Origin: a virus
Reading direction: 5' to 3' (one strand)
Virus record (IMG/VR): IMGVR_UViG_3300046534_001374
Coordinates: 1 to 64,000 of that record
Length of the DNA stretch: 64,000 bases
Below, in pieces: positions 9,155 to 41,932 of this stretch. The position numbers and the translations under genes are program-made. The notes beneath the pieces were generated by a model that saw nothing but the letters and a program-made list of their open reading frames with translations, was not told where the DNA came from and ran no database searches. Numbering within the stretch: the stretch's first letter is position 1; the number at the start of each line of letters is the position of its first letter.

Positions 9155-9170
9155 CAGAAATTAAAAATCT

Positions 9171-9545: not shown

Positions 9546-9664
9546 AGACAACAAGGCGTGGGAGAGCGACGATCTACCGCTAGCTTAGTTTATGTTTATG
9601 TATTATCGCGTTTAGATTCCGAACGGAGTTCGGTTTAGATCGCGCCTCCACATTGACGTTCGCT
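9546..9664 (+). mobile_element. Integron attC site 2
   Basis: Close copy of attC1; R'' GAGACAAC is the exact reverse complement of GTTGTCTC at the start of cassette 1. Confidence 0.88.
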
Positions 9665-9688
9665 AGGAAACCCCAACCAACTAAACTC

Positions 9689-19868: not shown

Positions 19869-19992
19869 ATGTTGAGAATAATACGTCTGTCTAACGCTAG
19901 AGCCATTACTTGGTTCACTCGGTTTGGGTGCTTACCACATCCATTACGCCGACTCTCTGTGTGGTCTCTCTCACACCACTACTATTATTTAA

Positions 19993-20078
19993 TTCATATG
20001 GAAGGATTCGAACCTCCGGTCCCCGTTAAGGGACACCAGTTTTTTAAATCAGTTGCTTTAAGCCACTCAGCCACATAC
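19993..20078 (-). pseudogene. Degenerate type-II (Ser/Leu-like) tRNA, anticodon undetermined
   Basis: D arm GGCTGAGTGGCTTAAAGC, long variable arm and T arm intact; anticodon arm mispaired; no CCA. Confidence 0.55.
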
Positions 20079-20351
20079 AAAATCATTTACAATTAAAATT
20101 CACACAATTTATCAAACTCTTCAGTTTTCCTATAAATCTTACACTCTGACAAAGCTTTACATACTCGCCTCAAAGCTTCCACATTTGGTCCGATCATATT
20201 GTCGATAAAGGCTCTTCGTGTGGTCTCTCACACCACTACTATTAGTATTACTACAATCTTCAAATATTACAAGAGAAAGTTGCAACTTTCTCAAGCAGTC
20301 CTTCATTTATTCGGATGAGCCTGAAGTCAGCATTCTCGCTTGAAGACTTTA

Positions 20352-21211: not shown

Positions 21212-21259
21212 AGCGACCGTCCTGCTTTTCAGGGGAACACGAATTTTAATCTCGCCGCT
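21212..21259 (-). ncRNA. Conserved post-attenuator structured RNA, copy 1
   Basis: AGCGGC-GAGATTAAAATTC-GTGTT-CCCCT-GAAA-AGCAGG-ACG-GTCGCT; three copies in the window with covariation. Confidence 0.85.
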
Positions 21260-21268
21260 TCTGTCTAT

Positions 21269-28791: not shown

Positions 28792-28839
28792 AGCGTCCGT
28801 CCTGCCCGAAGGGGGATCACGAATTTTAATCTCAACGCT
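28792..28839 (-). ncRNA. Conserved post-attenuator structured RNA, copy 2
   Basis: AGCGTT-GAGATTAAAATTC-GTGAT-CCCCC-TTCG-GGCAGG-ACG-GACGCT. Confidence 0.85.
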
Positions 28840-28847
28840 ACTAAACC

Positions 28848-29039: not shown

Positions 29040-29115
29040 TGGCACACCCTGAAGAACTCGAATCTTCAACCTTCACGTTCGAAGCGTGGTGCTCTTCCAA
29101 TTGAGCTAAGGATGC
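29040..29115 (-). tRNA. tRNA-Arg(TCG)
   Basis: Loop CT-TCG-AA; CCA. Confidence 0.9.
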
Positions 29116-29119
29116 GTTT

Positions 29120-29203
29120 TGGTGGACCACAAGAGAATCGAACTCTTTTAACTTTAATGCTATCTTGCAAGGATAGTGCAACACCCATGTTACCATGCAG
29201 CCC
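29120..29203 (-). tRNA. tRNA-Ala(TGC) with extended variable region
   Basis: CTATC-CTTGCAA-GATAG arm; G3:U70; CCA. Confidence 0.85.
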
Positions 29204-29214
29204 TTTGATGTTTT

Positions 29215-29244
29215 TATTTATAGCAAACTACACCAATTTGTCAA
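29215..29244 (-). promoter_or_regulatory. Promoter for the Ala/Arg(TCG) tRNA pair
   Basis: TTGACA-N13-TGC-TATAAATA, same layout as the three leader promoters. Confidence 0.75.
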
Positions 29245-29247
29245 CTT

Positions 29248-29505
29248 TTATTCTTCCAATTTAGGTAGACCTAGCATCCTTCGAAATACTCCAGTATCAC
29301 CCTCCTTAGATTTCAGTCCAAGAGATACCGAGTTACCAACACATTTTCCGCCTTCAATGAATCCTGCGGAAACAGGAGATCTCCTAGTATCATCCCATTG
29401 GTTTATAACCATCGGTCCTCTTGCGGCATTCACATGCGCGATATCTGGTGAAAAGATGATGATAGTGTTATCATCAAATCTCACATATTTGTTACATCCA
29501 TACAT
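29248..29505 (-). CDS. Hypothetical protein
   Basis: 85-aa ORF with IIFS...H...VSAGF...GNSVSLGL pattern. Confidence 0.65.
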   Translation of the reverse strand: MYGCNKYVRFDDNTIIIFSPDIAHVNAARGPMVINQWDDTRRSPVSAGFIEGGKCVGNSVSLGLKSKEGDTGVFRRMLGLPKLEE

Positions 29506-29762
29506 AATATTATTTTGATTTGTTTTCTAGTTTATTGATGCGTGATTCGGTCTTAATATAAAATCTTCTTAAGAGTTCAGTATCGACTTCGAATTGCACT
29601 TTTTCTTGCACCTCGTTCTTTATAGCGGACTCTACATACTCTACCAACAAACCAAGCAGACGTGTAGTAGACGTGTCTCCTGATTCTTTTTCCAATTCAG
29701 CTTGCGCGTCTTTAATTACCTCTAATGTAGGTTTATATTCGTCTATAATTTCATGTATCATA

Positions 29763-29839
29763 TGGCACACCCAATAGGACTCGAACCTATAACCCTCGCT
29801 TTAGAAAAACGATGCTCTATCCATTTGAGCTATGGGTGC
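29763..29839 (-). tRNA. tRNA-Arg(TCT)
   Basis: Loop TT-TCT-AA; CCA. Confidence 0.92.
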
Positions 29840-29849
29840 GTGTTAGAGT

Positions 29850-30452
29850 TTACTTAAAGGTAACCTTGTATTCTGAAAGGTTCTCTGAAGGAGTTACGAC
29901 GAGATCACTCTGGCTATTAATATCCTTCAGGATAGCCTTGCAAGTGACACCTTTTTGCTTGAGGCGACTTTGGATGCTCTTCAAAGAAGCCGTGCCTTTA
30001 TTCCGCAAGTAGTTACGAACACGAAGTAGGTTATCCGTAGTGGATGAACCAGAGACCTTAGTGGGATTAGTTTTAAGTCCTGCGAACGGGTTGGAGTTAG
30101 GTGTCACTACCCTTGTGAATGGGTTGTTAGGTGAAGGTTTCTGAACTGCGGTAATCACCGGAATATCAGCACCGACATAAACCTGATAAGTGGTTTTATG
30201 GGTTTCATCATAATGATCCCGATTAAATCGGATTTGGAGTTCACTATCATTCAAGAGTTGTTCAAAAGTTTCTCGAACTTCATGATGCCATAGATTAGTT
30301 CCGGCTACATCGCTCAATTCATATTTGAGGTTATTAACATCGCCACGAATAATCGAGGTGATTGTGAATTTACTGAATTCACCGCCATTATCGGTGAAGA
30401 ACTTCACGGTTTGTTTAATGGCTTCTTTTAGCGTCAATTGGGCTGTTTTCAT
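29850..30452 (-). CDS. Hypothetical protein
   Basis: 200-aa ORF with upstream TTGACA promoter-like sequence. Confidence 0.7.
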   Translation of the reverse strand: MKTAQLTLKEAIKQTVKFFTDNGGEFSKFTITSIIRGDVNNLKYELSDVAGTNLWHHEVRETFEQLLNDSELQIRFNRDHYDETHKTTYQVYVGADIPVITAVQKPSPNNPFTRVVTPNSNPFAGLKTNPTKVSGSSTTDNLLRVRNYLRNKGTASLKSIQSRLKQKGVTCKAILKDINSQSDLVVTPSENLSEYKVTFK

Positions 30453-30674
30453 CGTGGTTTTACTTTAACTTGGTTTGGGTTATTTGTCAAGAATTTATTT
30501 TACGTTTATTTAGGCCATTTGTAGCAGGACGTTTAGAACTGCCATTTGGGTGGGATTTATCCTATCATCTTTGATCCACTGAAAAATATTATTTAACCGT
30601 TCTTTGTAAGGTTTGGTTTTGTCAAGAACCTTAGCTTTCATAAGGTCGTATTGGTAATCATCGGCTTTCATAGG

Positions 30675-30929
30675 TTATTTCCTGTATTTGAGAATTAAAA
30701 AGAGGTTCAGAGAGTTGATCGTCCATGATGCTGCGTAGTTGAAATACAGCCAAAAGTTGTAAGGTATTGAGTATACAGTGTATACGATTGCCAGAATAAA
30801 GGCTAGGTTGCTCAGAACGTAAGTCCCGATGGACACACTCTCTGAATTCTTGGTTTTAATTAATTGTAATGTCTGCGGAATCCCGCAGACAACAAAAAGT
30901 AAACAATAAATAAATCCTAAATATTCCAT
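30675..30929 (-). CDS. PQ-loop/SemiSWEET-family membrane protein
   Basis: GIPQ...KTKNSESVS motif; three hydrophobic helices. Confidence 0.85.
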   Translation of the reverse strand: MEYLGFIYCLLFVVCGIPQTLQLIKTKNSESVSIGTYVLSNLAFILAIVYTVYSIPYNFWLYFNYAASWTINSLNLFLILKYRK

Positions 30930-31008
30930 ACGACTACAAACTCTCCTAAATATGTTGCTGATGACATGCGGGTAACTTACTCCGAAAAGGGTTTAGTGTC
31001 AAGGAAAT

Positions 31009-32259
31009 TTAAACAGAACATTCGATTAAGTATCGAATATTAACTTGCGCGTTGTCATAAACAATAAATTCATCATTATGTAGACCAGTATTTCTAGCTA
31101 GTGCTGTGATGCTGTCAAATCCTCTTGGTGGTGATCCTGTTCCTCTTGCGAGATTGGTTTTACCCATTGCGAAATCACACACGAAGAGCCAAGCTCCATC
31201 ATTAGATGCGCCTTGCCCCCATCGTCCGAGACTGTATCCCAGACTTTTAGATGAACAGTTTGCGCCATAAACTCCATTACCAAACATCTTACCAGCAATC
31301 CTAGCAGAAGAAGGTGGTGCGATAGAGAGACCTGATTTAAAAATTGAAAGGCAATTCGCAATTCCAGTTCCGTGGTAATATTGTTCCACATTTCCCCAAC
31401 CTTTATTGTCGAAGGACTTATCCATCTCACCTAAAGTTACTTCATAAATATTAGCAACTTTAACATTACCATAATGATGCATAGACTTTTTGGTTTTATT
31501 GAATTCGTCTTCCAACCTTTTATAAATCGATTTATCTGTGAGAGGTTCTACCGAAACATCAAATACCTTTTCTTCAGGCTCATCATTTCCTTTGTCATCC
31601 TTTTTGGTGGTCGCAGATTTAACGCTAACCTCTAAAGAATCTAGGAGAGCTTTCTGTTTCTTAATTCCGTCTAGATTTGCGAAATTAGAATCTACAAAAC
31701 TCTGAACTTTTCTCCCTACATTCTGAGGAACGATTTCGAGGAAATTGCAAGCGTAATTATAGAATGTTTTACAACTCTTATCTTTAAGAACAAACATCTT
31801 ATCCAGAAGTTCACTTGCTTCAATAAGGCCATCGCCAGTTACAATACCGAGAGGTGTTTGAAACAACCCACTGGAGGAGTTGAAGGTAATTTGAGTGTTG
31901 GCTGTAATCTGGTGGATATTGGCTTTAGACAAACGCGAAATAAGCTTCTCAGCGAGCGTTGAGGAAGTTTTGATTTGATTCCTTGCGAGTTCATGAACAG
32001 AACCCGAAGGGACGTTAGAAACGCTTACAGACTCAGAGAGGGTCTTTGTTCTAACGTAACCCTTCTTCTCTTTGGATTTAATTTTAGATCTTAGCTTACT
32101 TTCGCCTTGCCACGATCCTTTTTGTGGATTGGCATTTCCGACTCTGCCCCAACGAGCATCCCAGTGACCATCTTCATAGAGATCCACTTCATAAAATTTA
32201 TTATTGTTAGCGACGATGGTGACGCAGATCAATCTGACTGTTTCTTTAATTTTGGACAT
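31009..32259 (-). CDS. WGR-domain PARP-like ADP-ribosyltransferase
   Basis: NNKFY...WGRVG (WGR); catalytic H-Y-E triad in YHGT, GKMFGNGVY...KSLGY and NDEFIVY. Confidence 0.92.
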   Translation of the reverse strand: MSKIKETVRLICVTIVANNNKFYEVDLYEDGHWDARWGRVGNANPQKGSWQGESKLRSKIKSKEKKGYVRTKTLSESVSVSNVPSGSVHELARNQIKTSSTLAEKLISRLSKANIHQITANTQITFNSSSGLFQTPLGIVTGDGLIEASELLDKMFVLKDKSCKTFYNYACNFLEIVPQNVGRKVQSFVDSNFANLDGIKKQKALLDSLEVSVKSATTKKDDKGNDEPEEKVFDVSVEPLTDKSIYKRLEDEFNKTKKSMHHYGNVKVANIYEVTLGEMDKSFDNKGWGNVEQYYHGTGIANCLSIFKSGLSIAPPSSARIAGKMFGNGVYGANCSSKSLGYSLGRWGQGASNDGAWLFVCDFAMGKTNLARGTGSPPRGFDSITALARNTGLHNDEFIVYDNAQVNIRYLIECSV

Positions 32260-32546
32260 GGTTTAAATTAATTGAATAGGTTTGTCGAATCGTTTCAAAA
32301 TGTCAATGGCAGCACAGAGGCATCTCATTTCATGCTCCATACATACAACACGATCAAAGTGTTTATGGCCGACTTTTACGTCATCTTTTTTAAGCTCCTC
32401 CTCATTTAGGATAATAAAATCCAGCCGCAATTGCTTTTTCTCATAATCTTCTTGCAATCTTGCGATTGGGTTGGTGAGGCATAAAGGATCTGTAGTAGCA
32501 TCCTTAAATTGTTTAAGATCTATTTCGATAATGTCTGACATAAGTG

Positions 32547-32837
32547 TTACTCCTTTTTGTGTCCGCATGTTTTTATGATAAGCTTTTCTATTACTTTGTC
32601 AAGATGTTTTTGGCAGAATTCTTGAACCCTTTTCAAGTCGCGATGGGTATGGATATAATCCTCTGAATCTTTAAACTTAAAACATCCTCGCCAACCATAT
32701 TCAGTTGGCTTGATTGAGTAACTACTTTTTTCAAGCCAGTCTTGTTCACAGAAATATTCAACAACTTCCTCGGTTGTTTGTCCGTCTCCATTATCATCGA
32801 TTGTTTTGGTTGGTTTTTTAAATTCTTTCCAGTTCAT
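32547..32837 (-). CDS. Hypothetical protein
   Basis: 96-aa ORF with upstream promoter-like sequence. Confidence 0.6.
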   Translation of the reverse strand: MNWKEFKKPTKTIDDNGDGQTTEEVVEYFCEQDWLEKSSYSIKPTEYGWRGCFKFKDSEDYIHTHRDLKRVQEFCQKHLDKVIEKLIIKTCGHKKE

Positions 32838-32930
32838 TTAAATTAAAATACCCTAATTTGACACGTCTGTCAAGCTCACATGTTAATTCATGTTCTCAAT
32901 TTGAGCATCGTTGAGAGGCTTTAGGGGTTT

Positions 32931-33016
32931 TGGCAGAGCATAATGGAATTGAACCATGAACCTTTTAAAGTCCCCATAGTTTAGCAAACTACTTCGCCAC
33001 CTCGACGGTATGCTCT
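32931..33016 (-). tRNA. tRNA-Ser(GCT)
   Basis: GTAGT-TTGCTAA-ACTAT arm, variable arm, G73, CCA. Confidence 0.85.
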
Positions 33017-33041
33017 TAAGGCGGGGAAGGCAAACTAAAAA

Positions 33042-33764
33042 TTATTTGCTATTCTCCTCAGATTTAGTTCGTTCTGTCAACAATTCAACTTTCGCCGTTA
33101 GTGTTGCTATTTTTTCTGCAATAACTACGGAATTCTCAACGTCTAAATTTTGTTGTATCTTGGCGAGATCTTGGTTTGCGGCATTCCACTCATCCCGTAT
33201 ATTACGGCTACCTTGTTCCTTGGTGTGTTCCAGCGCAAATAAATTCAGCCGTTCTAAGCTTCTTCTGAGGCTATCAACTTGATCCTTAAACATATCCCCT
33301 ATTTCTTCCTGATTCCTGTGCAATGATACGAGATCATGCTCGACGCCAACTAAACGTGACAATGTATTCGGGTGGCCGTCTAGGATGACATGTTTTTGTA
33401 TTTCTTCTTGTAAGGGCGAAACTAATAAAACAACTGCTGCCCAAAAAGCCGCAACAGCAACAACCCCTGCGGTGATAACTAAACTAACAACCGAGACCAA
33501 CATGCCCGCACCAATCTTGGTAGGCGCGGAATTCCTTTCAGAAAGAACGTCTTTAATATCCCTAAAACCTTCTGCTTGATGTTGTTGTAATAAAGTTTGT
33601 CCTATATTTAGGGATTTGATATCACCTTTAACTTCACTTATTGCAGATTGAAATTCGACCTGCAATCCACTGATATTTTTCTTAACACCCGCAATTTCGG
33701 AATCTACTTTCTGGAATCTCTCCGAAGTGTCGCTTGGTGTAGATTTTCTCGGGGCTGTGGGCAT
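33042..33764 (-). CDS. Coiled-coil membrane protein
   Basis: Central ~30-aa hydrophobic segment flanked by heptad regions; late-type motif upstream. Confidence 0.65.
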   Translation of the reverse strand: MPTAPRKSTPSDTSERFQKVDSEIAGVKKNISGLQVEFQSAISEVKGDIKSLNIGQTLLQQHQAEGFRDIKDVLSERNSAPTKIGAGMLVSVVSLVITAGVVAVAAFWAAVVLLVSPLQEEIQKHVILDGHPNTLSRLVGVEHDLVSLHRNQEEIGDMFKDQVDSLRRSLERLNLFALEHTKEQGSRNIRDEWNAANQDLAKIQQNLDVENSVVIAEKIATLTAKVELLTERTKSEENSK

Positions 33765-33800
33765 GTATGTATTTATTTAAAATATACATCCGTTTAACCG

Positions 33801-33837
33801 TTTAGCGGGTATTATATAAAATATAATACCCGCTAAA
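33801..33837. terminator. Perfect inverted repeat / bidirectional terminator
   Basis: TTTAGCGGGTATTATAT-AAA-ATATAATACCCGCTAAA. Confidence 0.7.
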
Positions 33838-33950
33838 AATAACTAATTATACGTTACAGCCAGTATAGGTTTCGCTAATCTACCGATGGCGACAAAACGG
33901 CTTTTTCTAGTGGGTTCGCCTAGATCGGGACAACCTACTTCTAAGGTTTC

Positions 33951-34649
33951 TTATTTTGGGGAGTTTTGTTTCTCCAAATATGCACCATAAAGTTTATACA
34001 AATTGGGGCTTCTACCCTTTTCTGTCGAAACCAGACCGACAACTACTTGTCGATCATTTTGAATTTGTGTAAGTTTCTTCCCAGAATCACCACTAACAAA
34101 TCGTGTATCTTTAGTAGTGGACAGTCTAATTATATTTCCGCTCGTAACAGTCACATAATAACCCCGCCAAGGTCTGTCGGCAAATCTCTGTGCGGTTGTC
34201 GGGGTGTCGGGTAGCGCCTTCCCTATGGGCATTACTGAGTGGATTGATGTGTCCAGAGGTTCGTCGAAGGTTAGTATAGCTAGATCATAGCCTAAATCTT
34301 CCTTTGTAATAATATGCCTATAAGTGGTCACACCACCCCTACCGTCGAATCTAACACGTTGATTGGTTTTGATCGGCCAATGAGCGACGTGTAAAGATTG
34401 TTTAGGATTTACTAAAACCCCACCCAACTGAACTATATCTCCGGTAGTGTCAATATCGGGGATAAGTTCGGATTCGGTTGGAGCCTTGCTTTCTTTAAAA
34501 AGTTTATATAAACCAGCACCAATACCCAAACTAACAACACCTAATACACTGTATTTTGTTTTTTGTTCCGTGGTTAAAGGTTCTGAGGGACTACTCCCAC
34601 ACGAAGCCAACATTAATAAACACATAGCGTAAGAAAGTAATCTTTTCAT
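33951..34649 (-). CDS. Lipoprotein with trypsin-like serine protease domain
   Basis: Lipobox LASC; catalytic VAHW, DLAIL and GDSG motifs. Confidence 0.75.
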   Translation of the reverse strand: MKRLLSYAMCLLMLASCGSSPSEPLTTEQKTKYSVLGVVSLGIGAGLYKLFKESKAPTESELIPDIDTTGDIVQLGGVLVNPKQSLHVAHWPIKTNQRVRFDGRGGVTTYRHIITKEDLGYDLAILTFDEPLDTSIHSVMPIGKALPDTPTTAQRFADRPWRGYYVTVTSGNIIRLSTTKDTRFVSGDSGKKLTQIQNDRQVVVGLVSTEKGRSPNLYKLYGAYLEKQNSPK

Positions 34650-34769
34650 AATTGTATTTATGTGTGTTAATCCGAAATTTCTCATTTTTCTAGATATGCA
34701 ACATCCAGTTCTTTTTCATGGAATACGCCGTTGAGGTCTTGGTATTCTACATTTAAACCTGAATACCCG

Positions 34770-34865
34770 TATAAAGTTTCTGATAAAACTATCGCAAACT
34801 GGTGTAAAAGTTATGAACTCAAAAAGCCAACCAGAGGTTTTTGGGTCAAAGAAAATAATTCGTAG
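34770..34865 (+). pseudogene. Homing-endonuclease HTH remnant
   Basis: Frame reads YKVSDKTIANWCKSYELKKPTRGFW*; antisense to the tRNAs. Confidence 0.55.
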
Positions 34866-34866
34866 T

Positions 34867-34975
34867 CGGTGCGCCCAATCAGATTCGAACTGATAACCTA
34901 GCCTTTATCCACGTAACACACTAAGATCAGTATGTTACGAAAGAGAAGCTTACTCTACCCTTGAGTTATAAGCGC
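34867..34975 (-). tRNA. tRNA-Ile(GAT) interrupted by a 34-nt hairpin insertion
   Basis: Removing 34910..34943 restores AGCTT-CTGATAA-AGGCT. Confidence 0.75.
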
Positions 34976-34982
34976 ATATTAT

Positions 34983-35073
34983 TGGCACAAGCAATAGGAT
35001 TCGAACCTACATAGTGTATTTCCAGTTACGGTATTTATTCACACTGCTTAGAAGGTAGGACCGATATACTTGC
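34983..35073 (-). tRNA. Rearranged tRNA-Arg(TCT)-like RNA lacking a normal D arm
   Basis: Acceptor stem, CT-TCT-AA loop only 12 nt after the acceptor 5' strand, long variable region containing ACCGTAACTGGA, T arm, CCA. Confidence 0.65.
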
Positions 35074-35080
35074 TTAATTT

Positions 35081-35120
35081 GGTATTTTACAGGTCTACCT
35101 GCTTCTGACTATACCTAGCC
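35081..35120 (-). ncRNA. Inter-tRNA pseudoknot element, copy 1
   Basis: GGCT-AGGTAT-AGTC-AGAA-GCAGG-TAGA-CCTGT-AAA-ATACC; second copy at 39829. Confidence 0.7.
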
Positions 35121-35126
35121 AATTTT

Positions 35127-35204
35127 TGATGCGAGAGTTGGAATCGAACCAACGACACAACTATCTTCTCGATAGTTTGCTCTATCCAATTGAGCTATCT
35201 CGCA
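35127..35204 (-). tRNA. tRNA-like RNA with extended anticodon stem, identity undetermined
   Basis: Canonical D and T arms; AACTATC-GAGAA-GATAGTT arm. Confidence 0.6.
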
Positions 35205-35210
35205 AACTGT

Positions 35211-35408
35211 TTACTCGTCCCAATCCGACCAAGCTGTGATGATACAAGTGGGCGAAACGACACCCAATGTATGGATAATCTCCCCTTTGTATGACTCTTC
35301 AAAATCACATTGGAATAATCGATATACATTCACTGCCCAACTGAAGGGGAAGAGGATGTAAAACACGATTATTAGGGTGGTGAGGATGGTTTTATATGTG
35401 GTGTCCAT
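35211..35408 (-). CDS. Small membrane protein
   Basis: N-terminal hydrophobic helix; CDFE..YKGEIIH motif. Confidence 0.65.
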   Translation of the reverse strand: MDTTYKTILTTLIIVFYILFPFSWAVNVYRLFQCDFEESYKGEIIHTLGVVSPTCIITAWSDWDE

Positions 35409-35445
35409 AATGGTATTATACTTTATTTTCTTAATTAATCAAGGA

Positions 35446-35739
35446 TTATTTGAAATATTTTACTGCTCGCTTTTCGAGGGCGTCATACGCCTCCAAAATA
35501 GGTTTCTTTCGTGATTCCAAATCCGGCTTTTCTTCTGAACGAGATTCGCCCAAAGCAAACTTGGCTCGATTAACCGCAATCGCGGTTCCAATTTTACGAT
35601 CAAAGCGATCACTCGAATCTGGATTCACCAAGGAATAACCAAATCCAAATTTACCATCTTGGTTTACCACTACCGCAACCCCAGTTGGGTTGTTATTTGA
35701 ATCTCGGATGAACGTCTTTAATACTGTATTTTCTGACAT
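35446..35739 (-). CDS. Hypothetical protein
   Basis: 97-aa ORF with DRFDRKIG motif. Confidence 0.65.
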   Translation of the reverse strand: MSENTVLKTFIRDSNNNPTGVAVVVNQDGKFGFGYSLVNPDSSDRFDRKIGTAIAVNRAKFALGESRSEEKPDLESRKKPILEAYDALEKRAVKYFK

Positions 35740-35881
35740 GTGAGTATTCTACTTTAGTTTTCGTTTTTTGTCCAGAACTATTTTGAAGAAATTATTTCCT
35801 TGGGGGGATTTTAACCCGCTCTTCTTTTCGAAGTTTCAGCACAGCGGGGTTTTATACCTGCTACGTTTAATGCTAAGGATT

Positions 35882-35958
35882 TGGCCCACCTAGAAGGATT
35901 TGAACCTTCGGCCTCCAAAGTTTCAATTTGGAACTCTACCAGACTGAGTTATAGGTGG
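35882..35958 (-). tRNA. tRNA-Phe(GAA)
   Basis: CCAAA-TTGAAAC-TTTGG arm; CCA. Confidence 0.88.
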
Positions 35959-35984
35959 TTTGTGATTGTTGGTTGTTGTTATTA

Positions 35985-36070
35985 TGGTGCATCAGGCGGG
36001 GGTCGAACCCGCATGCTCTAGGAGCGCGACCGTTTAAGGATCGAATGTATACCAATTCCATCACTGATGC
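35985..36070 (-). tRNA. tRNA-Leu(TAA)
   Basis: Loop CT-TAA-AC, variable arm, A73, CCA. Confidence 0.9.
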
Positions 36071-36072
36071 GT

Positions 36073-36148
36073 TAGTAGTTTCCCCCAGATTCGAACTGAG
36101 AAACATCAGTTATTAACCGACTGCTTTACCTAATTTGCATAGGAAACT
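36073..36148 (-). tRNA. tRNA-Ile(AAT)
   Basis: GTCGG-TTAATAA-CTGAT arm; 3' end A-CTA. Confidence 0.75.
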
Positions 36149-36151
36149 ATT

Positions 36152-36238
36152 TGGTGTGCATAATCGGACTCGAACCGATAAGGGATTACTCCCACTAGAA
36201 CCTAAACCTAGCGCGGTTACCATTTTCGCCACACGCAC
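36152..36238 (-). tRNA. tRNA-Leu(TAG)
   Basis: Loop TT-TAG-GT, variable arm, CCA. Confidence 0.9.
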
Positions 36239-36311
36239 ATACCGTTGTTTTGTCAGACTGGGACAACGAGAAACCCTTTACATATTCATCTACCACTGGT
36301 AGCGAACTAAG

Positions 36312-36893
36312 TTATTTTATAAATTTAATAAGACCTTTCTCCATTAACTCTTGGACTGTGGAAGTATCTTTCTTTTCATATACCGCAAACAACCAAGGCT
36401 TTTCGGTAATTGCCCGTTCTAAATCTGGGTCGTCATTATGTAATGATTGGATTTCGGGGGGTAGATCTCGAAACTCGGTCTTGGTGACATCGTTACGCTT
36501 CTTATAGTAATATTCCCACACTTTACTACTATCTTCTGTATTGGCACCACCAGTATGTCCATACATTAGAGTGGAAGAACCTATTTTATGTTTTTGGTAA
36601 GTTACCAGTTCCATTGCAATGTCGTATCCTAATGCGCCATAACCCTTACCCCTATAATTACCGTATGATCCTGTATGCCCATTCCAAAATCCATCAAATC
36701 TCGACTCCAGCCTCATAGAGAAAACTAAGTCTTTTTTTACTTTATTAAATATATCAAAATCCCACTGCTCCCTATTCGACGAATGTTGGTTCGCCATCCT
36801 AACGAAAATCCGAGTTTTTGGATCACTGTGTAATTCAGACACATCTGCCATACCTTCGGTTAAATCATGTAATAAAGTTTCAAAACGATCCAT
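36312..36893 (-). CDS. GNAT-like protein, putative internal head protein
   Basis: YRGKGYG motif A; N-terminus MDRFETLLHDLTE. Confidence 0.55.
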   Translation of the reverse strand: MDRFETLLHDLTEGMADVSELHSDPKTRIFVRMANQHSSNREQWDFDIFNKVKKDLVFSMRLESRFDGFWNGHTGSYGNYRGKGYGALGYDIAMELVTYQKHKIGSSTLMYGHTGGANTEDSSKVWEYYYKKRNDVTKTEFRDLPPEIQSLHNDDPDLERAITEKPWLFAVYEKKDTSTVQELMEKGLIKFIK

Positions 36894-36936
36894 ACATCTA
36901 CTTATCTGTTACACACTACTGGTAGCGAACTAATTC

Positions 36937-37203
36937 TTATGGAAAGATCAAAGCAACTTTTCCGCTTTCGTGTTCTATTTTAAATTCTTCCCACTCTACT
37001 TCATCATCAAAACCAGCGTCATCGGCAGACCAATTTGGGTCGTATAGCTGGGCATCCCAACCAGAACTACCTTTAACATAAAAACATTCGGTATGGACAC
37101 CCGCAATAGTTTCATAACCATTACCTTCGGCATTCTTTTGGAGGATGATTTCCATATCGTCAGGGATATCTTTAATTTGTTCTTTTAGTTTTCCAATCGT
37201 CAT
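36937..37203 (-). CDS. Hypothetical protein
   Basis: MTIGKLKEQIKDIPDD...AEGN small acidic protein. Confidence 0.65.
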   Translation of the reverse strand: MTIGKLKEQIKDIPDDMEIILQKNAEGNGYETIAGVHTECFYVKGSSGWDAQLYDPNWSADDAGFDDEVEWEEFKIEHESGKVALIFP

Positions 37204-37456
37204 TATTTTATATTAACATTCCGATTATACTTTTCAAGTGTTTCTATAAAATGAATCTCACATTCGGACTATACCGCTCACATACATCGTAGACTTGAGA
37301 CCAATCTACGTGAGTTTTGAATTGTCGGAGATCAAGCCGACTCACATTAAATTTAAACTAGGTTAGCACGACACACTTTAGTTTTACGAACCACGACATC
37401 GTGCTGTCTCAGTCCACTTATGCGATCCCTATCTCAGGGGTATCCACCGTTTAAAT

Positions 37457-37529
37457 TGGTAGCTCGTCCGAGAATCGAACTCGGCTGGAAAGCATATGAA
37501 ACTTTCTACTTCACCTGAAGTAACGAGCA
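37457..37529 (-). tRNA. tRNA with CAT anticodon (Met or Ile2)
   Basis: AAAGT-TTCATAT-GCTTT arm; short D arm; CCA. Confidence 0.78.
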
Positions 37530-37532
37530 GTT

Positions 37533-37790
37533 TTAACCTGCATTAAAAGAACTACAAATAATTGTGCCTTCTTTTTGTCTTTGGTTTGCTTTACCTATAC
37601 ACTCAACTGTAATTGAATTCAGATCAGATGTCCAACCACAATTCCGATTGTGTGACATATCAGTGTCTTTATAGAATTCGTGATTAGGGTAATAAGTAAG
37701 TGCTTTTTGTTTTGATTTTGAAACTACGACAAAGGAATCATAACAGTCGTAACTTTTATTTTTATCTTGTTGGAGTAAGTAAATGTTCAT
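37533..37790 (-). CDS. Hypothetical protein
   Basis: YDCYDSFVV...CSSFNAG pattern. Confidence 0.7.
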   Translation of the reverse strand: MNIYLLQQDKNKSYDCYDSFVVVSKSKQKALTYYPNHEFYKDTDMSHNRNCGWTSDLNSITVECIGKANQRQKEGTIICSSFNAG

Positions 37791-37958
37791 GTTGGTATAC
37801 TACCGTGCTAATGAGAATTTGTCAAGCCAGTTTCTAAATTTATTCTCATCTTCGGTCAACCTAGAATCCTTAAAACATATGAAGCCCATACTCGTTTCTC
37901 ATCGAGTAATAACTCTAACGTATCTTCTGTATCAAACTCCAACGCTTCATATTTTGCA

Positions 37959-38228
37959 CTATAAATTCTCTGATATCTTAGGGGTTATGGCGGGAGGAAT
38001 CGGGACTTGAATCACCTTTGACTTGAAGTAGTTTGTTTTACCACAAACCACACAATCCCCTGTCCAATAGTCTCCATCTCTTTGAGTTGAAAATTGTTTT
38101 ACCTCATCCCCCTGTTCCGAATAGTGTTTTACCTCATCTTCTTCTGCCTCTAATTCAGACTTACATTTGTTGCAAGTGCATGTATATACAGTTTTGGAAA
38201 TATGCGTTCCTCTTTTGATTACTTTCAT
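37959..38228 (-). CDS. Zinc-ribbon hypothetical protein
   Basis: CNKC...CVVC motifs. Confidence 0.65.
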   Translation of the reverse strand: MKVIKRGTHISKTVYTCTCNKCKSELEAEEDEVKHYSEQGDEVKQFSTQRDGDYWTGDCVVCGKTNYFKSKVIQVPIPPAITPKISENL

Positions 38229-38277
38229 ATTGAATTGGTAGTGATGAATAACTCCTTAAAAAGCTAGGAGTATAGTT

Positions 38278-38367
38278 TGGCAGACTAGCATAGCATCGAA
38301 CTATTACCCCATCTCTGACGCACTATGCTTTTCAAGAGCATTTGAGGAGCCGACCTCAGACTAGTCC
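38278..38367 (-). tRNA. tRNA-Ser(TGA)
   Basis: ATGCT-CTTGAAA-AGCAT arm, variable arm, G73, CCA. Confidence 0.85.
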
Positions 38368-38371
38368 ATTT

Positions 38372-39034
38372 TTAAATCTTTTTGATATACATTTGCCCCT
38401 TAATATTTTCGGGAACTCTCATTCCATACGTCATACTAAGAAAATCTCCCGAAAAATCATTAGGATGCATATACTTTATTCTGTGGATAAAATTCTTAAT
38501 GTAAAATTTGATACCAATACCGTCAATACTAACTCTGCATTCACCAATTCTATTCGGCTCTATCGCAAAGGTGGTTTTAATATCAGGATCAAATTGGCTA
38601 ACTATAGTATATCTTCCCGCATTCAAAAGGTTGAATATAATTCTCTTATGGATTTCTCTTTCTATCACAGGTAAAGCTCTATCGAACTTATTGTCACCAG
38701 AAGAAATTCTCCTGTTGCACATTTCCATACCGTCCACAATAAAGTCTGTGGTCATTTTGGTTTCGACATATGGTGCAAATACCACGCTATCCTTCAGATC
38801 TCGGGATAACATGCTGACAACATCATTCTGGTCTGTATAGTCTACGCGAGGAAGACAACTAGTGATGTTTGCCATACTTTTGGTTGAGTTGATTAAATCG
38901 ACCCACAAACCATAATCAAAAAATTTCTTGTGACTGAATATGGGTGACGGTTTGACACCGCCAATATTCAGTTTAGAATATGTTACTACTGGAGTAGCGA
39001 GGAGTAGTGTTGATAAAAAGGTTCGTTTTTTCAT
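38372..39034 (-). CDS. Hypothetical protein with weak gp23-like segments and signal-like N-terminus
   Basis: MKKRTFLSTLLLA; VVFAPYV, EREIHKRII and MTYG segments. Confidence 0.55.
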   Translation of the reverse strand: MKKRTFLSTLLLATPVVTYSKLNIGGVKPSPIFSHKKFFDYGLWVDLINSTKSMANITSCLPRVDYTDQNDVVSMLSRDLKDSVVFAPYVETKMTTDFIVDGMEMCNRRISSGDNKFDRALPVIEREIHKRIIFNLLNAGRYTIVSQFDPDIKTTFAIEPNRIGECRVSIDGIGIKFYIKNFIHRIKYMHPNDFSGDFLSMTYGMRVPENIKGQMYIKKI

Positions 39035-39040
39035 AAATGT

Positions 39041-39184
39041 ATGTTGTTTGATCCTAGTAAGGAGGAGTTACAGGAAAAAATTTCTAGTGGGCTACCTTTA
39101 ACTAAAATTGGTCAGTATTATGGTGTTTCGGTTAATGCTATCCGAAAACGTTGTAAAAAACTACAAATAAGTTTCAAAAGGTAG
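39041..39184 (+). CDS. Stand-alone HTH / homing-endonuclease remnant (47 aa)
   Basis: PSKEEL...TKIGQYYGVSVNAIRKRCKKL. Confidence 0.6.
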   Translation: MLFDPSKEELQEKISSGLPLTKIGQYYGVSVNAIRKRCKKLQISFKR

Positions 39185-39186
39185 AT

Positions 39187-39262
39187 TGGCTCTAGATTGT
39201 GGTAACGCTCCACACGCTCTCTTCTTAACAGGAAGGCCCGTTCGCTTGCTCGGTCATCTAGA
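39187..39262 (-). tRNA. tRNA-Asn(GTT), atypical T loop
   Basis: Loop CT-GTT-AA; T loop AGCGTTA; G73; CCA. Confidence 0.8.
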
Positions 39263-39265
39263 ATT

Positions 39266-39340
39266 TGGCAGTATAGGAAGGACTCGAACCTTCATTTTAT
39301 GGATCAACAATCCACGGCATTGCCATTATGCTACTATACT
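39266..39340 (-). tRNA. tRNA-Asn(GTT)
   Basis: GTGGA-TTGTTGA-TCCAT arm; CCA. Confidence 0.85.
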
Positions 39341-39456
39341 ATGTTTATAAGCCATAAGGTCTAATCTTTCGATCTACAGGGGTAGCGTAGTGATCATCTG
39401 GTATGCTGGCCAGACATCGTTATCCTTATTGTTGTTTAAGCGTATGCTTATAAAAT

Positions 39457-39532
39457 TGGTCCGCTAGGAGGGAGACGATCCCCCAACCTTGTCGTTAAAA
39501 GCGACCTGCTCTGCCTATTGAGCTACTAGCGG
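39457..39532 (-). tRNA. tRNA-Lys(TTT)
   Basis: Loop CT-TTT-AA; CCA. Confidence 0.88.
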
Positions 39533-39631
39533 TTTAAAAATTGTGTCGTATGGGTATCGATCCCACTTATTACCTAACCTCCACTTTTCACAGCTTTGGA
39601 TGCCACCTGATACGACCCTTAAAATATGACT

Positions 39632-39707
39632 TACTCTAACCTCTGGAATTGAACCAGAGTCTGCCGCTTTATAAGCCGCCGTAATTTCCAATTATACCAA
39701 GTTATTT
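39632..39707 (-). pseudogene. Degenerate tRNA, anticodon ATA or TAT
   Basis: D and T arms intact, GCGGCTTATAAAGCGGC arm, broken acceptor stem. Confidence 0.5.
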
Positions 39708-39749
39708 CTGTCCACAACCAAAGAGCAAATAACTCTCTCAGATCATGTT

Positions 39750-39824
39750 TGAAGTCAAGAGTTAGATTCGAACTAACGACACTCCCTCAATTAAAGGCTG
39801 CTCTAACCACTGAGCTATCTTGAC
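39750..39824 (-). tRNA. tRNA-like RNA with malformed anticodon loop, paralog of 35127..35204
   Basis: Canonical D and T arms and acceptor; GCCTT-TAATTG-AGGGA arm; 3' T-TCA. Confidence 0.6.
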
Positions 39825-39828
39825 TTAT

Positions 39829-39868
39829 GGTATTTTACGGGTCTACCCGCTCCTGACTATACCTAGCC
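39829..39868 (-). ncRNA. Inter-tRNA pseudoknot element, copy 2
   Basis: 37/40 identical to copy 1, with a compensatory A-T to G-C change in the hairpin. Confidence 0.7.
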
Positions 39869-39870
39869 TT

Positions 39871-40043
39871 TGGTGTCCCATGTGGGGATTCGAACCCTAC
39901 TCACATTATATCCTTTGTCAATTACTAATGCATTTTCTTTGACACTCTATTTCCTGTGGGCCGATACTTCATCTTACGACTTCTTCGGGCACACTTCTTA
40001 CACTACGTTTAAGTAGTAGCTCTAGCCATTGAGCTAATGGGAC
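39871..40043 (-). ncRNA. tRNA-like RNA with ~95-nt variable-region insert
   Basis: GTCCCAT/ATGGGAC-A-CCA, D arm, ACTAC-TTAAAC-GTAGT arm, long insert, GGGTTCGAATCCC. Confidence 0.7.
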
Positions 40044-40113
40044 TTTTAATTCTCATAACAAATACAAGTCAACATGAAATTGTAATGTTGTAAAGGTTTA
40101 TCTTAACTTAATT

Positions 40114-40206
40114 TGGAGCGGAGGAACCGATTCGAACGGCTATCTGTTCTCAGTTGTATAAGGTTAGGCTTGGATTCGCCCTGTGCTGCCATTACACCAC
40201 CTCCGC
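40114..40206 (-). tRNA. Atypical tRNA-Gly(TCC)-like RNA
   Basis: GCGGAGG/CCTCCGC-T-CCA Gly-type acceptor; 8-nt loop GAATCCAA; unstructured long variable region. Confidence 0.55.
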
Positions 40207-40215
40207 TTTTTACTG

Positions 40216-40608
40216 TTACCAGTCAATATTTATAACGTATTCTCCTGCTTCGATCAAGCCCTTTTTGAATAAATCGTCAAAGAGTATTTCGATGTTTGGA
40301 AAGAAATTCCGTTCCCAAAACATTTCAAGAGTCCAAGCAGAGTCGGATTCTGAAAGTTGTTCTGTGGGATCTCGCTCAAGCCAGTCTTTCAAAGAAACAG
40401 AACCATACTCATTTTTAATGATATCCTCTAGGACATATCCTTCTAGGACATATCCTTCTTCAACATCTTTCACAGGAACTTTTACATATTGGGTTCCTCT
40501 TGCTCTACAACCAAATTGTTGCTGAAAGCTAAAAGGTCTTTTGTAAGTTTCCTCGATGAAATCGTCCAAATCTGAGACTTGGACATATTTTATGGTTTCG
40601 TATTTCAT
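40216..40608 (-). CDS. Hypothetical protein
   Basis: 130-aa ORF ending GEYVINIDW. Confidence 0.7.
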   Translation of the reverse strand: MKYETIKYVQVSDLDDFIEETYKRPFSFQQQFGCRARGTQYVKVPVKDVEEGYVLEGYVLEDIIKNEYGSVSLKDWLERDPTEQLSESDSAWTLEMFWERNFFPNIEILFDDLFKKGLIEAGEYVINIDW

Positions 40609-40973: not shown

Positions 40974-41048
40974 TGGTTACAGGAGAAGAAATCGAATCTT
41001 CGTAGAAAGGGATATGAACCCTATCAGGGAACCAACACCCTTCCTGCT
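40974..41048 (-). tRNA. Initiator tRNA-fMet(CAT)
   Basis: 1:72 mismatch; three G-C pairs closing the TTCATAT loop; CCA. Confidence 0.85.
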
Positions 41049-41129
41049 ATTTGGAGATTAACAACAAACTCAATCATTGTCAACCTTTATCAACAGGAAA
41101 AATCATTTTTGTTTCTCCTGTCTTTCTAT

Positions 41130-41178
41130 AGCGAACGTCCTGCCATTTCTGGGGGCACCGAATTTTAATCTCTCCGCT
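41130..41178 (-). ncRNA. Conserved post-attenuator structured RNA, copy 3
   Basis: AGCGGA-GAGATTAAAATTC-GGTG-CCCCCA-GAAA-TGGCAGG-ACG-TTCGCT. Confidence 0.85.
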
Positions 41179-41184
41179 TGAAAT

Positions 41185-41257
41185 AAAAAACCCATTTAAC
41201 TGTTAAGCTAAATGGGTGTCGTATTTCTAAAATCTTTATTTTATACTTAACACACCC
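41185..41257 (-). promoter_or_regulatory. Attenuator 3: antiterminator overlapping an intrinsic terminator
   Basis: Terminator ACCCATTTAGC/GTTAAATGGGT plus T run; competing GGGTGT/ACACCC helix from the last leader codons. Confidence 0.8.
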
Positions 41258-41324
41258 GCAGGGAATTACTTCTCTTGCAAAAGAGAGATCTTCCTAAATT
41301 TATGTTTGACATAATGTGTTTCAT
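41247..41324 (-). CDS. Leader peptide 3, MKHIMSNINLGRSLFCKRSNSLRVC
   Basis: Manual translation; 20/25 codons specify Met/Lys/Ile/Ser/Asn/Leu/Arg/Phe; promoter TTGCAA-16-TATAAGTA upstream. Confidence 0.8.
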   Translation of the reverse strand: MKHIMSNINLGRSLFCKRSNSLRVC

Positions 41325-41514
41325 TGGCTTTGTTGTTATTACTTATAGCAGAGGTTTGCTCTTTTGCAATTAAAATGTTAATTTTTTTAAGTTGGTGTTA
41401 GAGCGGGATTTGCACCCACATATTGTAGCTATATCAATATTCCACATACTACTTCAAAATCACTCACTTTCTAGAATTAAGAGCAATTTTTGCAGTGGAC
41501 CTAAACTTTTAAAT

Positions 41515-41637
41515 TGGAGATCTTGGATGGGGTTGAACCACACTAACCCTAAGCTTTCGGGGTATTCCTTATATTACCGACTCTTCGGAATTTATAGAGT
41601 GCTAGCCCTTTATAAATTCCTGCAATAAGCCAAGACC
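41515..41637 (-). ncRNA. tRNA-like RNA (acceptor, T arm and CCA with long internal hairpins)
   Basis: GGTCTTGG/CCAAGATC-T-CCA; GGAATTTATAAAG/CTCTATAAATTCC hairpin. Confidence 0.55.
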
Positions 41638-41932
41638 TTGTTGGGGGTTATTTGTAACCTAGATCCACCGAGGTAGTGGACTTCCTTGCTTTCCGCTTTC
41701 TGCCGCAAAGAGCGCATAGGCATCTTTTAGAGCTTTAGCCGAATCTCTATATCCTGATTCGCTGGATTGCATACTCAGAGATCCGCCTTTACAGGCATAT
41801 CGGTTTGAATGTGACGATTGGGCTGTTTTGTATTTGTTTTCAAGTTCTTCTAACATTGTTTTGTTTTCGTTTCTTTCGATGTTTTTAAATTAGCACGGGG
41901 TTTATAATTCGGCAAGTGCTAACTTGAGTTTT

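Follow-up and report, generated by a model that had tools for sequence, protein, structure and literature searches.

Enterobacterial leader-peptide attenuators are the closest described counterparts of the locus reported here. In these systems, exemplified by thrL (Thr, Ile), ilvL of ilvGMEDA (Leu, Val, Ile), trpL, hisL, pheL, and leuL, a short leader rich in control codons precedes mutually exclusive antiterminator and terminator hairpins, and the position of the ribosome decides which of them forms. More than one amino acid can be monitored by a single leader (thr, ilv), and in the absence of translation a 1:2 helix favors termination. Related logic governs aminoacyl-tRNA synthetase genes: in the pheST attenuator and in T-box riboswitches, the state of a tRNA adjusts the translation apparatus through a choice between terminator and antiterminator. 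The pheST leader monitors a single amino acid and controls a synthetase; T-box riboswitches bind uncharged tRNA directly and need no translation. To our knowledge, classical attenuation has so far been described for amino-acid and synthetase genes, and a full-text literature search found no publication on leader-peptide attenuation of tRNA genes in phages or bacteria. The purpose of phage tRNA genes has itself been debated for 50 years: the usual proposals are that they provide codon compensation, replace degraded host tRNA, or allow escape from anticodon nucleases.

In this report, we describe a cassette upstream of a block of phage tRNA genes that is, in our judgment, likely to be a ribosome-mediated leader-peptide transcription attenuator: one that reports on the decoding of the codons served by the tRNAs encoded downstream. 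The cassette is the third of its kind in the DNA that we analyzed, a stretch of 64 kb referred to as the window, and we call it cassette 3. It shares with the enterobacterial attenuators a short leader rich in control codons, predicted exclusive antiterminator and terminator hairpins whose choice would be set by ribosome position, a possible 1:2 helix that would favor termination without translation, and the monitoring of more than one amino acid. With the synthetase attenuators and T-boxes, it shares the principle that the state of tRNA adjusts the translation apparatus. The differences are equally clear. Cassette 3 would regulate phage tRNA genes rather than biosynthetic enzymes or a synthetase, and it would require translation, unlike a T-box. 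Its leader samples 8 amino acids and 11 anticodons one to four times each, whereas enterobacterial leaders contain runs of one or two. The mRNA lacks a Shine–Dalgarno (SD) sequence and is nearly leaderless, a 49-nt RNA and a second promoter lie past the terminator, and there is no sequence similarity to the enterobacterial systems. Known RNA families did not account for the locus: the Rfam trpB motif matched leader 3 at 26.8 bits against a threshold of 59, which is not significant, and the T-box riboswitch (RF00230) had no Rfam match between 28.9 and 42.0 kb, either at the gathering threshold or at E up to 5.

The window is the first part of a 139.6-kb IMG/VR contig with an estimated completeness of 65%. 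The contig represents an uncultured marine phage; its rIIA, baseplate wedge, and ribonucleotide reductase genes mark it as T4-like. Its reductase and its metallophosphatase/exonuclease have their nearest relatives in phages of marine Flavobacteriia, and SD motifs precede 14 of 124 genes compared with 16% of random positions, that is, without enrichment. These affinities, together with the absent SD enrichment, would suit a host among the Bacteroidota. Close relatives of the 38–43 kb region were not found among GenBank phages by megablast or blastn, and single-protein locus queries with the 369-aa and 446-aa ORFs recovered no relatives. The confident tRNA genes, 28 by ARAGORN and 22 above the threshold of Rfam, are all confined to a minus-strand interval from 18.3 to 40.2 kb of the contig.

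A repeat search revealed an element of about 50 nt that occurs 3 times in the contig (21212–21262, 28792–28842, and 41131–41181). A covariance model of the corresponding 49-nt RNA gives exactly 3 matches in the 139.6-kb contig, each directly after the terminator of a cassette. Each copy begins 6 to 9 nt past its terminator, and in front of each terminator is an ORF of 23 to 25 codons with the same promoter layout. Because the 3 cassettes were found through the 49-nt RNA, the terminator, the ORF, and the promoter layout, they are defined independently of the residues that the leaders encode. The 3 cassettes are paralogous, and each is upstream of one tRNA block. Leader 1 (MKNIFQQQWQQPYPPMDGSRNCV) stands before Pro, Pro, Gln, Gly, and Trp genes, plus Tyr at a relaxed threshold; leader 2 (MNNVTNFNHGTTVVVEHGEDTTLP) before Glu, Asp, Gly, Thr, Thr, Val, Gly, and His; and leader 3 (MKHIMSNINLGRSLFCKRSNSLRVC) before Ile, Lys, Asn, Met, Leu, Ile, Leu, Phe, Ser, Ser, Arg, and Arg. 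Residues belonging to the leader's own block number 10 of 22, 16 of 23, and 19 of 24 for leaders 1 to 3, and only 1 to 8 when the leaders are compared with the other blocks.

Cassette 3 extends over 41369–41180 of the minus strand and consists, in sequence, of a promoter-like box, a 25-codon ORF, an antiterminator, and a strong intrinsic terminator. The box (41341–41369) comprises TTGCAA (41369–41364), a 16-nt spacer, and TGC-TATAAG-T (41350–41341), and conforms to the layout common to the boxes of leaders 1, 2, and 3: TTGNNN, 16 nt, TGnTATAA(G/A)T. It is 91% identical in the orthologous cassette of contig L096. Its −10 hexamer ends in G instead of the usual T, and this putative promoter does not appear in the list produced by our promoter scan. 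A T4-type late promoter was considered and dropped: the motifs TATAAATA/TATAAGTA are not overrepresented in the genome (21 sites vs 37 expected). An A-rich spacer of approximately 16–17 nt separates the box from the AUG, with an A-rich 5′ UTR of about 10 nt.

The leader ORF (41247–41324, minus strand) has 25 codons followed by TAA: ATG AAA CAC ATT ATG TCA AAC ATA AAT TTA GGA AGA TCT CTC TTT TGC AAG AGA AGT AAT TCC CTG CGG GTG TGT TAA. An earlier, sequence-only reading of this DNA had listed the leader's codons, and that list was borne out for the ORF at 41324–41247, as was the statement that Q, W, P, Y, T, E, D, and A codons are missing from it; the reading had left unmentioned a His codon (CAC, codon 3) and a Val codon (GTG, codon 24). 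The ORF lacks an SD sequence, which is no objection to its translation since SD motifs are not enriched before the genes of this phage.

The intrinsic terminator (41180–41217, minus strand) begins after a 32-nt spacer from the leader stop and comprises a 12-bp stem with a UAAC loop (41217–41190) and the U-tract UUUUUUAUUU (41189–41180). Its predicted fold has −14.9 kcal/mol (z −6.2). Among terminator-like sites on both strands of 26.5–43.5 kb it ranks second, the top site lying inside an ORF and having a poor U-tract. In the same region, only 2 convincing terminator-like sites occur on the minus strand, namely this terminator and that of cassette 2 (28875). The minus strand of the whole window holds only 10 strong terminators, and terminator 3 is among them. 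Downstream is a second, sigma-70-like promoter (41055–41083, minus strand; TTGACA, 17 nt, TAATCT), 7 nt upstream of a tRNA-like gene and retained in the orthologous contigs L096 and L097. Analogous TTGACA boxes follow the 49-nt RNA in cassette 1 and in a paralogous cassette on the metagenomic contig L004.

The RNA of cassette 3 contains the segments expected of a switch. Segment 1 (AACACAU, 41314–41320, codons 2–4) pairs with GUGUGUU (41255–41249) in the minimum free energy fold of the untranslated full-length RNA, in which the terminator also forms; the leader can thus be assigned the classical set of 1:2, 2:3, and 3:4 pairings, with segment 1 as the presumed anti-antiterminator of this model. 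Segment 2, the antiterminator 5′ strand (GGGUGU, 41252–41257), lies in codons 23–25 and ends 2 nt short of the stop codon. Segment 3, the antiterminator 3′ strand (ACACCC, 41214–41219), overlaps the base of the terminator stem and is invariant in L096 and L097; all of these segments are on the minus strand. We modeled switching by folding the nascent RNA up to the terminator loop while a 29-nt stretch around each A-site codon was kept unpairable. In this model, the GGGUGU-ACACCC helix takes up 4 base pairs at the foot of the terminator stem, the end beside the U-tract. Ribosome positions at codons 2–18 are predicted to permit the helix, and positions from about codon 21 onward to the stop to abolish it.

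The antiterminator domain (41259–41212) folds at −12.2 kcal/mol with a z score of −3.5, and 1 of 200 shuffled sequences was as good. The helix is short, 6 bp besides an internal hairpin, and does not reach the stability of the terminator (−12.2 vs −14.9 kcal/mol); switching would therefore have to be kinetic. In trp, the terminator is likewise more stable than the antiterminator. Codons 13–18 also contain a hairpin that is no more stable than shuffled sequence (z −0.08), and we make no claim for a pause hairpin at this position.

The placement of the switch strand recurs. In all 4 cassettes that carry the 49-nt RNA (3 in the window and that of L004), the antiterminator 5′ strand adjoins or contains the stop codon, and the helix sequences are unrelated: GGGUCUAGAAAU pairs with AUUUCUUGACCC in leader 1; GUAAGGUAA, with the stop codon inside the strand, pairs with UUGCCUUAC in leader 2; and UUGAGGUAA pairs with UUACCUCAA in L004, as a perfect 9-bp helix that includes the stop. 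In the models of all 4, the helix can form as long as the ribosome is within the first two thirds of the leader and disappears once it stands at the stop.

The tRNA block behind cassette 3 (block 3; 29040–40206, minus strand) contains, according to ARAGORN, an ambiguous RNA at 40114 followed by Ile(aat), a doubtful Tyr(ata), Lys(ttt), Asn(gtt), Met(cat), Leu(tag), Ile(aat), Leu(taa), Phe(gaa), Ser(aga), Ser(gct), Arg(tct), and Arg(tcg). Between these tRNAs lie small ORFs and a PARP-like gene. The block is bounded by the cassette 2 terminator (28875–28854), and no further convincing minus-strand terminator was found between the terminators of cassettes 3 and 2. Sigma-70-like promoters occur directly behind cassette 3 and inside the 12-kb block; given these internal promoters, the attenuator would be one input among several to transcription of the distal tRNAs rather than their sole driver, and to say that the leader “heads” the block should be read as a statement of position. 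Nearest to the cassette is a weak tRNA-like gene (40974–41048, minus strand) whose anticodon loop carries CAT and whose ACCA end is encoded; ARAGORN calls it at a relaxed threshold only, and it has no Rfam match. At the corresponding position, the orthologous contig L097 carries a 94-nt tRNA(CAT) (L097:276–369).

Two assignments concern leader codons outside the repertoire of the block. The single GGA codon had been tentatively linked to a Gly(TCC)-like RNA at 40114, and this link proved weak: ARAGORN calls the RNA at 40114–40206 tRNA-?(Asp|Gly), with a 6-nt loop and an extra arm of approximately 25 nt, leaving Asp and Gly undecided, and the Rfam tRNA model has no match there at E up to 5. We accordingly do not treat it as a canonical tRNA-Gly. 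The remark that 2 Cys codons lack a corresponding tRNA held up, as no tRNA-Cys was found in the 65%-complete contig, relaxed thresholds included. These codons may serve RNA structure, UGU being part of the switch strand. Another possibility is that they mark a tRNA-Cys, either lost or located in the missing third of the genome. In the leaders of L004 and of the cultured phage described below, Cys codons do have a tRNA partner downstream, a degenerate one in the case of the cultured phage.

The match between leader 3 and block 3 can be assessed at the level of residues or of anticodons. Of the 24 non-start residues, 19 fall within the 8 amino acids of block 3, compared with 1 and 3 within those of blocks 1 and 2. 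With an expected fraction of 0.47, as derived from the phage proteome, the binomial P is 0.0012. When the contig's 458 real ATG ORFs of 18–30 codons serve as the reference, the empirical P is a modest 0.028, since the residues of the leader are common ones with AT-rich codons. For the second comparison, we took the anticodons called in block 3 at default stringency and tested them against the 24 leader codons. By strict wobble, the leader covers all 11 distinct anticodons (UCG, UCU, GCU, AGA, GAA, UAA, AAU, UAG, CAU, GUU, and UUU), with P = 6.5e-5 under the codon usage of long ORFs and 5.5e-4 under that of small ORFs. No other of the 458 small ORFs reaches 11 of 11. When the doubtful Tyr(ata) is added, or when only tRNAs that also exceed the Rfam threshold are counted, P ranges from 7e-4 to 0.018. 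The sequence-only reading had considered this match less striking than those of the other leaders on account of the common residues; once anticodons are counted, the match is more striking than that reading had stated.

The codons are also spread in a manner that would be expected of a sampler of isoacceptors: 4 types of Ser codon, both Arg and both Leu families, ATT and ATA, AAA and AAG, and AAC and AAT. Codons 2–18, the predicted sensing stretch, already include all 8 amino acids and all 11 anticodons of the block. Five of the 24 codons (His, Gly, Cys twice, and Val) have no cognate tRNA in block 3, and Tyr(ata), if real, has no counterpart in the leader.

Two metagenomic orthologues of cassette 3, L096 and L097, were found through the 98-aa ORF behind the cassette. 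The leader is MKHIMSNINLGRSLFCKRSNSVWVC in L096 and ..IMSNSNLGISLFCKRSNFLWVC in L097, where the 5′ end is cut off. Both contigs keep the promoter, the leader, both switch strands, the terminator, the 49-nt RNA, a tiny ORF that bears an SD sequence, and the second promoter. The nucleotide identity to leader 3 is 97% (L096) and 87% (L097), and that of the adjacent 98-aa gene is 78% and 75%. The replacements I8S, R12I, and S21F remain within the amino-acid set of block 3; I8S and R12I, which would be radical changes for a protein, fall inside the sensing stretch (codons 2–18). L22V and R23W leave the set, and both lie in the tail that forms the switch. A leader composition equal to background in homologues had been named as evidence against an attenuator; in these orthologues, the composition has not dropped to background, and the replacements in the sensing stretch are confined to residues of the set. 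L096 overlaps L092, a contig of the same sample, and its cassette is followed by tRNA genes for Met(cat), Ile, Leu, Lys, and Lys and by an Asn-like gene.

Another relative, L004, carries a paralogous cassette: the leader MNTNCNTNKHEGGTEHSP is followed by a terminator, the 49-nt RNA, and a TTGACA promoter. Behind the promoter are a homologue of the window's 130-aa ORF, one more ORF, tRNA genes for Glu, Asn, Lys, Gly, and Cys, and the end of the contig. The leader mirrors 5 of 5 of these tRNAs (P 8e-5 to 7e-4). Cys is among them, and this tRNA-Cys stands behind a leader with a Cys codon. The family of the 130-aa gene is widespread in phages, and its members frequently occur in tRNA regions. Among 254 homologues of this gene, 80 IMG/VR loci, and 4 Logan contigs, the 49-nt RNA is absent; the device that includes it is therefore confined to a narrow lineage. 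In a crude screen for a terminator plus a small ORF, distant loci with the 130-aa gene and tRNA clusters yielded no matching cassette. Maribacter phage Molly_1 has no tRNA genes.

A similar arrangement exists in a cultured phage, Cellulophaga phage phi4:1 (KC821632.1), which we reached through a reductase match. At 86.9–90.0 kb of its record is a compact tRNA cluster split by 3 terminators, with a short ORF before each; the leader modules are unannotated or annotated as hypothetical gp075. The leader MKIQRLHLQELEQPIISGGTGV (containing MKIQRLHLQELEQP..) stands before Pro, Glu, Gln, His, Leu, Leu, and Arg, and 11 of its consecutive codons are strictly readable by these 7 tRNAs, with coverage of 7 of 7 (P 2e-5 to 6e-4). 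The leader ..QLTKTGITVIDKTKGARAYLGDTVIG (containing ..TKTGITVIDKTKGARA..) stands before Ala, Lys, Ile, Gly, Met, Asp, Thr, Val, Arg, and Met, and 22 of its 26 residues fall within this set (P 3e-4). The leader MKTNYCTYNNSNWSFSYD.. (containing ..NYCTYNNSNWSFSY..) stands before Tyr, Ser, Asn, Trp, Phe, and a degenerate tRNA whose loop, UUGCAAA, is of the Cys type. The competing upstream strands of modules a and b act as in the cassettes of the window; in module c, the competing strand lies in the middle of the ORF and stays free with a ribosome at the stop. The phage thus resembles cassette 3 in having a promoter, an intrinsic terminator with a competing upstream strand, and a short ORF whose residues are those of the downstream tRNAs. 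It differs in several respects: there is no sequence similarity and no 49-nt RNA, the promoter boxes are of the Bacteroidota type, and the phage is not T4-like. Its terminators end 12–13 nt before the first tRNA with neither ORFs nor a second promoter in between, unlike cassette 3.

The attenuator interpretation had been advanced on the basis of the letters of the window, and the analysis lends it support from several directions: an antiterminator next to the stop codon in 4 cassettes, the match of codons to anticodons, conservation in orthologues, and the same logic in L004 and phi4:1. Of the features that characterize such an attenuator, those that can be assessed in silico were found in cassette 3: a short ORF before a terminator, a predicted antiterminator that the ribosome excludes, and control codons that match the tRNAs downstream. 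In the proposed mechanism, transcription would start at the promoter-like box, and the 25-codon leader would be translated at once. When decoding is fast, the ribosome would reach the last codons and the UAA and cover GGGUGU, leaving ACACCC free; the terminator would form, and the polymerase would stop at 41189–41180. A ribosome waiting for a charged tRNA at codons 2 to about 18 would instead permit the GGGUGU-ACACCC pairing, which removes the base of the terminator stem. The polymerase would then pass through the 49-nt RNA into the tRNA(CAT)-like gene, 2 small ORFs, and the Ile, Lys, Asn, Met, Leu, Phe, Ser, and Arg tRNA genes. As phage tRNA accumulates, fast decoding would be restored and the switch would close, forming a negative feedback loop. 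If the leader is not translated, codons 2–4 may pair with segment 2 and favor termination, as in trp. In this manner, the phage probably raises transcription of the tRNA block when ribosomes decode the leader codons slowly. Translation of the leader, stalling of the ribosome, and the change in read-through are steps that we infer, as is the identity of the signal; a shortage of tRNA would be more sensible than a shortage of amino acids, because extra tRNA cures only the former.

How far the control extends is the main point on which a different view can be taken. A real attenuator of local reach would mainly gate the 49-nt RNA, the tRNA(CAT)-like gene, and the 98-aa and 130-aa ORFs, with the distal tRNAs transcribed from promoters of their own. 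Same-strand promoters of the TTGACA type at 41083, 40658, 37825, 35774, 32873, 32602, 30490, and 29250 are compatible with this arrangement, as are the ORFs that separate the terminator from the first confident tRNA in 4 of 4 cassettes with the 49-nt RNA and the wide distribution of the 130-aa family in phages and its frequency in tRNA regions. We nevertheless regard it as unlikely: leader 3 covers anticodons across the whole block, as far as Arg(tcg) at 29040, no convincing terminator interrupts that block, and nothing intervenes in the 12–13 nt between the phi4:1 terminators and the first tRNA. The nature of the signal is a separate matter. A classical multivalent attenuator could respond to tRNA left uncharged for lack of amino acids, with the tRNA genes as passengers; the stalling mechanism would be formally identical, and multivalent leaders such as thr and ilv are established. 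Such a starvation sensor is very unlikely here, since extra tRNA brings no relief from amino-acid starvation, leader 3 tracks isoacceptors (4 Ser codon types, both Arg and Leu families), and leader composition covaries with tRNA gene content both between blocks and between phages.

It is also conceivable that no attenuator exists, that the terminator is an ordinary one ending the upstream unit, that the small ORF is untranslated, and that the resemblance arises from the K, N, I, L, S, R, F, and M codons common in AT-rich DNA. The modest residue-level P of 0.028 against small ORFs agrees with such a coincidence, and a 6-bp antiterminator helix is not rare at random. Against this stand the threefold occurrence of the architecture in the genome, marked by the independent 49-nt RNA; the first place of leader 3 among 458 small ORFs in anticodon coverage; its better conservation relative to the neighboring 98-aa gene; and the repetition of the logic with other amino-acid sets in L004 and phi4:1. 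Coincidence is, in our view, most unlikely.

A leader whose codons match the tRNAs behind it would imply a phage that gauges decoding capacity and provides tRNAs as they are needed, which would point to tRNA supply as the selected function. It would extend classical attenuation to tRNA genes and to viruses. Since the composition of a leader predicts the tRNAs downstream, it may also aid annotation; here, it predicts a missing tRNA-Cys. The presence of the same logic in the cultured phi4:1 brings the idea within reach of bench tests. More tentatively, the cassettes could be sensors of tRNA loss, caused by host anticodon nucleases or by phage-induced decay of host tRNA, that switch on replacement tRNAs block by block; the 49-nt RNA would then be a second module, for example one that renders the read-through polymerase resistant to terminators across the 12-kb block or that signals precursor processing. 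We consider this possible rather than likely; if true, the sensor and the 49-nt RNA would form a two-stage RNA device without a described counterpart.

The 49-nt RNA of cassette 3 lies at 41130–41178 on the minus strand and, by its position past the terminator, would be transcribed only upon read-through. Together with leader 3 and the 41.35–42.0 kb spacer, it matches no Rfam family, and the stability of its single-sequence fold is not unusual. An exact-pattern scan of IMG/VR gave no match; the corresponding metagenome scan gave one true relative (L004), and a further hit (L003) was a chance match. Between the 49-nt RNA and the promoter that follows, the spacing ranges from about 3 to 47 nt, a variation that speaks against a DNA site of fixed geometry. 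Its consensus reads AGCGnn / GAG-AUUAAAA-UUC / CCCC-tetraloop-GCAGGAC / nnCGCU. In the alignment of 6 copies (3 in the window, L004, L096, and L097), the GAG-AUUAAAA-UUC hairpin is invariant, the closing stem contains 2 covarying pairs, and the apical loops GAAA, GAGA, and UUCG are interchangeable.

Every attenuator terminator is followed immediately 3' by a conserved 49-nt structured RNA. The window copies, all on the minus strand, occupy 21212-21262, 28792-28842, and 41130-41178; related copies lie on a metagenomic contig carrying a paralogous cassette (L004:1110-1157) and on metagenomic orthologues of cassette 3 (L096:200-249 and L097:142-190). Across copies, a GAG-AUUAAAA-UUC hairpin is invariant, the closing stem covaries, and GNRA and UUCG caps are interchangeable. 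The RNA has no match in Rfam.

In a 93-nt tRNA-like RNA on the minus strand (40114-40206), the acceptor stem is good, a T arm is present, and the CCA is encoded; its anticodon loop measures 6 nt and its extra arm about 25 nt, and the Rfam tRNA model does not recognize it. Relatives carry unusually long tRNA genes (79-95 nt) with a CAT anticodon, at L096:1022-1116 and at L097:276-369 and 869-947, and those of 94-95 nt possess a large extra arm; their window counterpart is a single degenerate one at 40974-41048. Also on the minus strand, one tRNA gene (34870-34975; 44.6 bits in Rfam) contains a 38-nt insertion within its anticodon loop, and its tRNA-like neighbor (34986-35073) is weaker. A 41-nt element occurs in two copies that are 93% identical (35080-35120 and 39828-39868), each immediately 5' of a tRNA gene.

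In bacteria, A at the wobble position is normally confined to tRNA-Arg(ACG). It was called in several phage tRNA genes, namely Ile AAU (twice), Ser AGA, Tyr AUA, and Phe AAA, on the minus strand at 36075-36148, 39751-39825, 35128-35204, 39635-39705, and 19992-20081. These calls may be erroneous, may reflect atypical anticodon loops, or may mark RNAs on which an unknown deaminase acts.

Protein-coding genes are interspersed among the tRNA genes. A minus-strand ORF of 130 aa (40216-40608) belongs to a large marine phage protein family with 254 homologues, in which the motifs FQQQ.GC and EY.I.IDW are invariant and for which Pfam returned no match. Genes of this family are frequently located in tRNA regions; in one Logan contig pair with the same gene set, the family gene adjoins Thg1-like and RlaP genes, and an RNA-ligase gene lies a few kb upstream. 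Lying amid the tRNA genes of block 3 (29040-40206), a minus-strand gene (31009-32259) encodes a PARP catalytic domain and weakly matches the WGR domain; Cellulophaga phage phi4:1, a cultured phage, also has a PARP gene, adjoining a tRNA nucleotidyltransferase gene.

Upstream of the leader 3 promoter lies a minus-strand non-coding stretch of about 300 nt (41392-41700), which holds the T-arm-like motifs GGGTGCAAATCCC (followed by ..ACCA) and GGTTCAACCCC; ARAGORN and Rfam made no call within it, and it may consist of decayed tRNA genes. Contig-wide, a CTATAATTA/TATAAT motif precedes many start codons by 3-10 nt and Shine-Dalgarno sequences are lacking, a combination that suggests promoters giving rise to very short or absent 5' leaders. 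Elsewhere, a non-coding stretch contains two direct repeats of about 120 nt (9041-9160 and 9550-9670), 87% identical and spaced 510 nt apart, with a GC-rich palindrome, TTCCGAACGGAGTTCGG.
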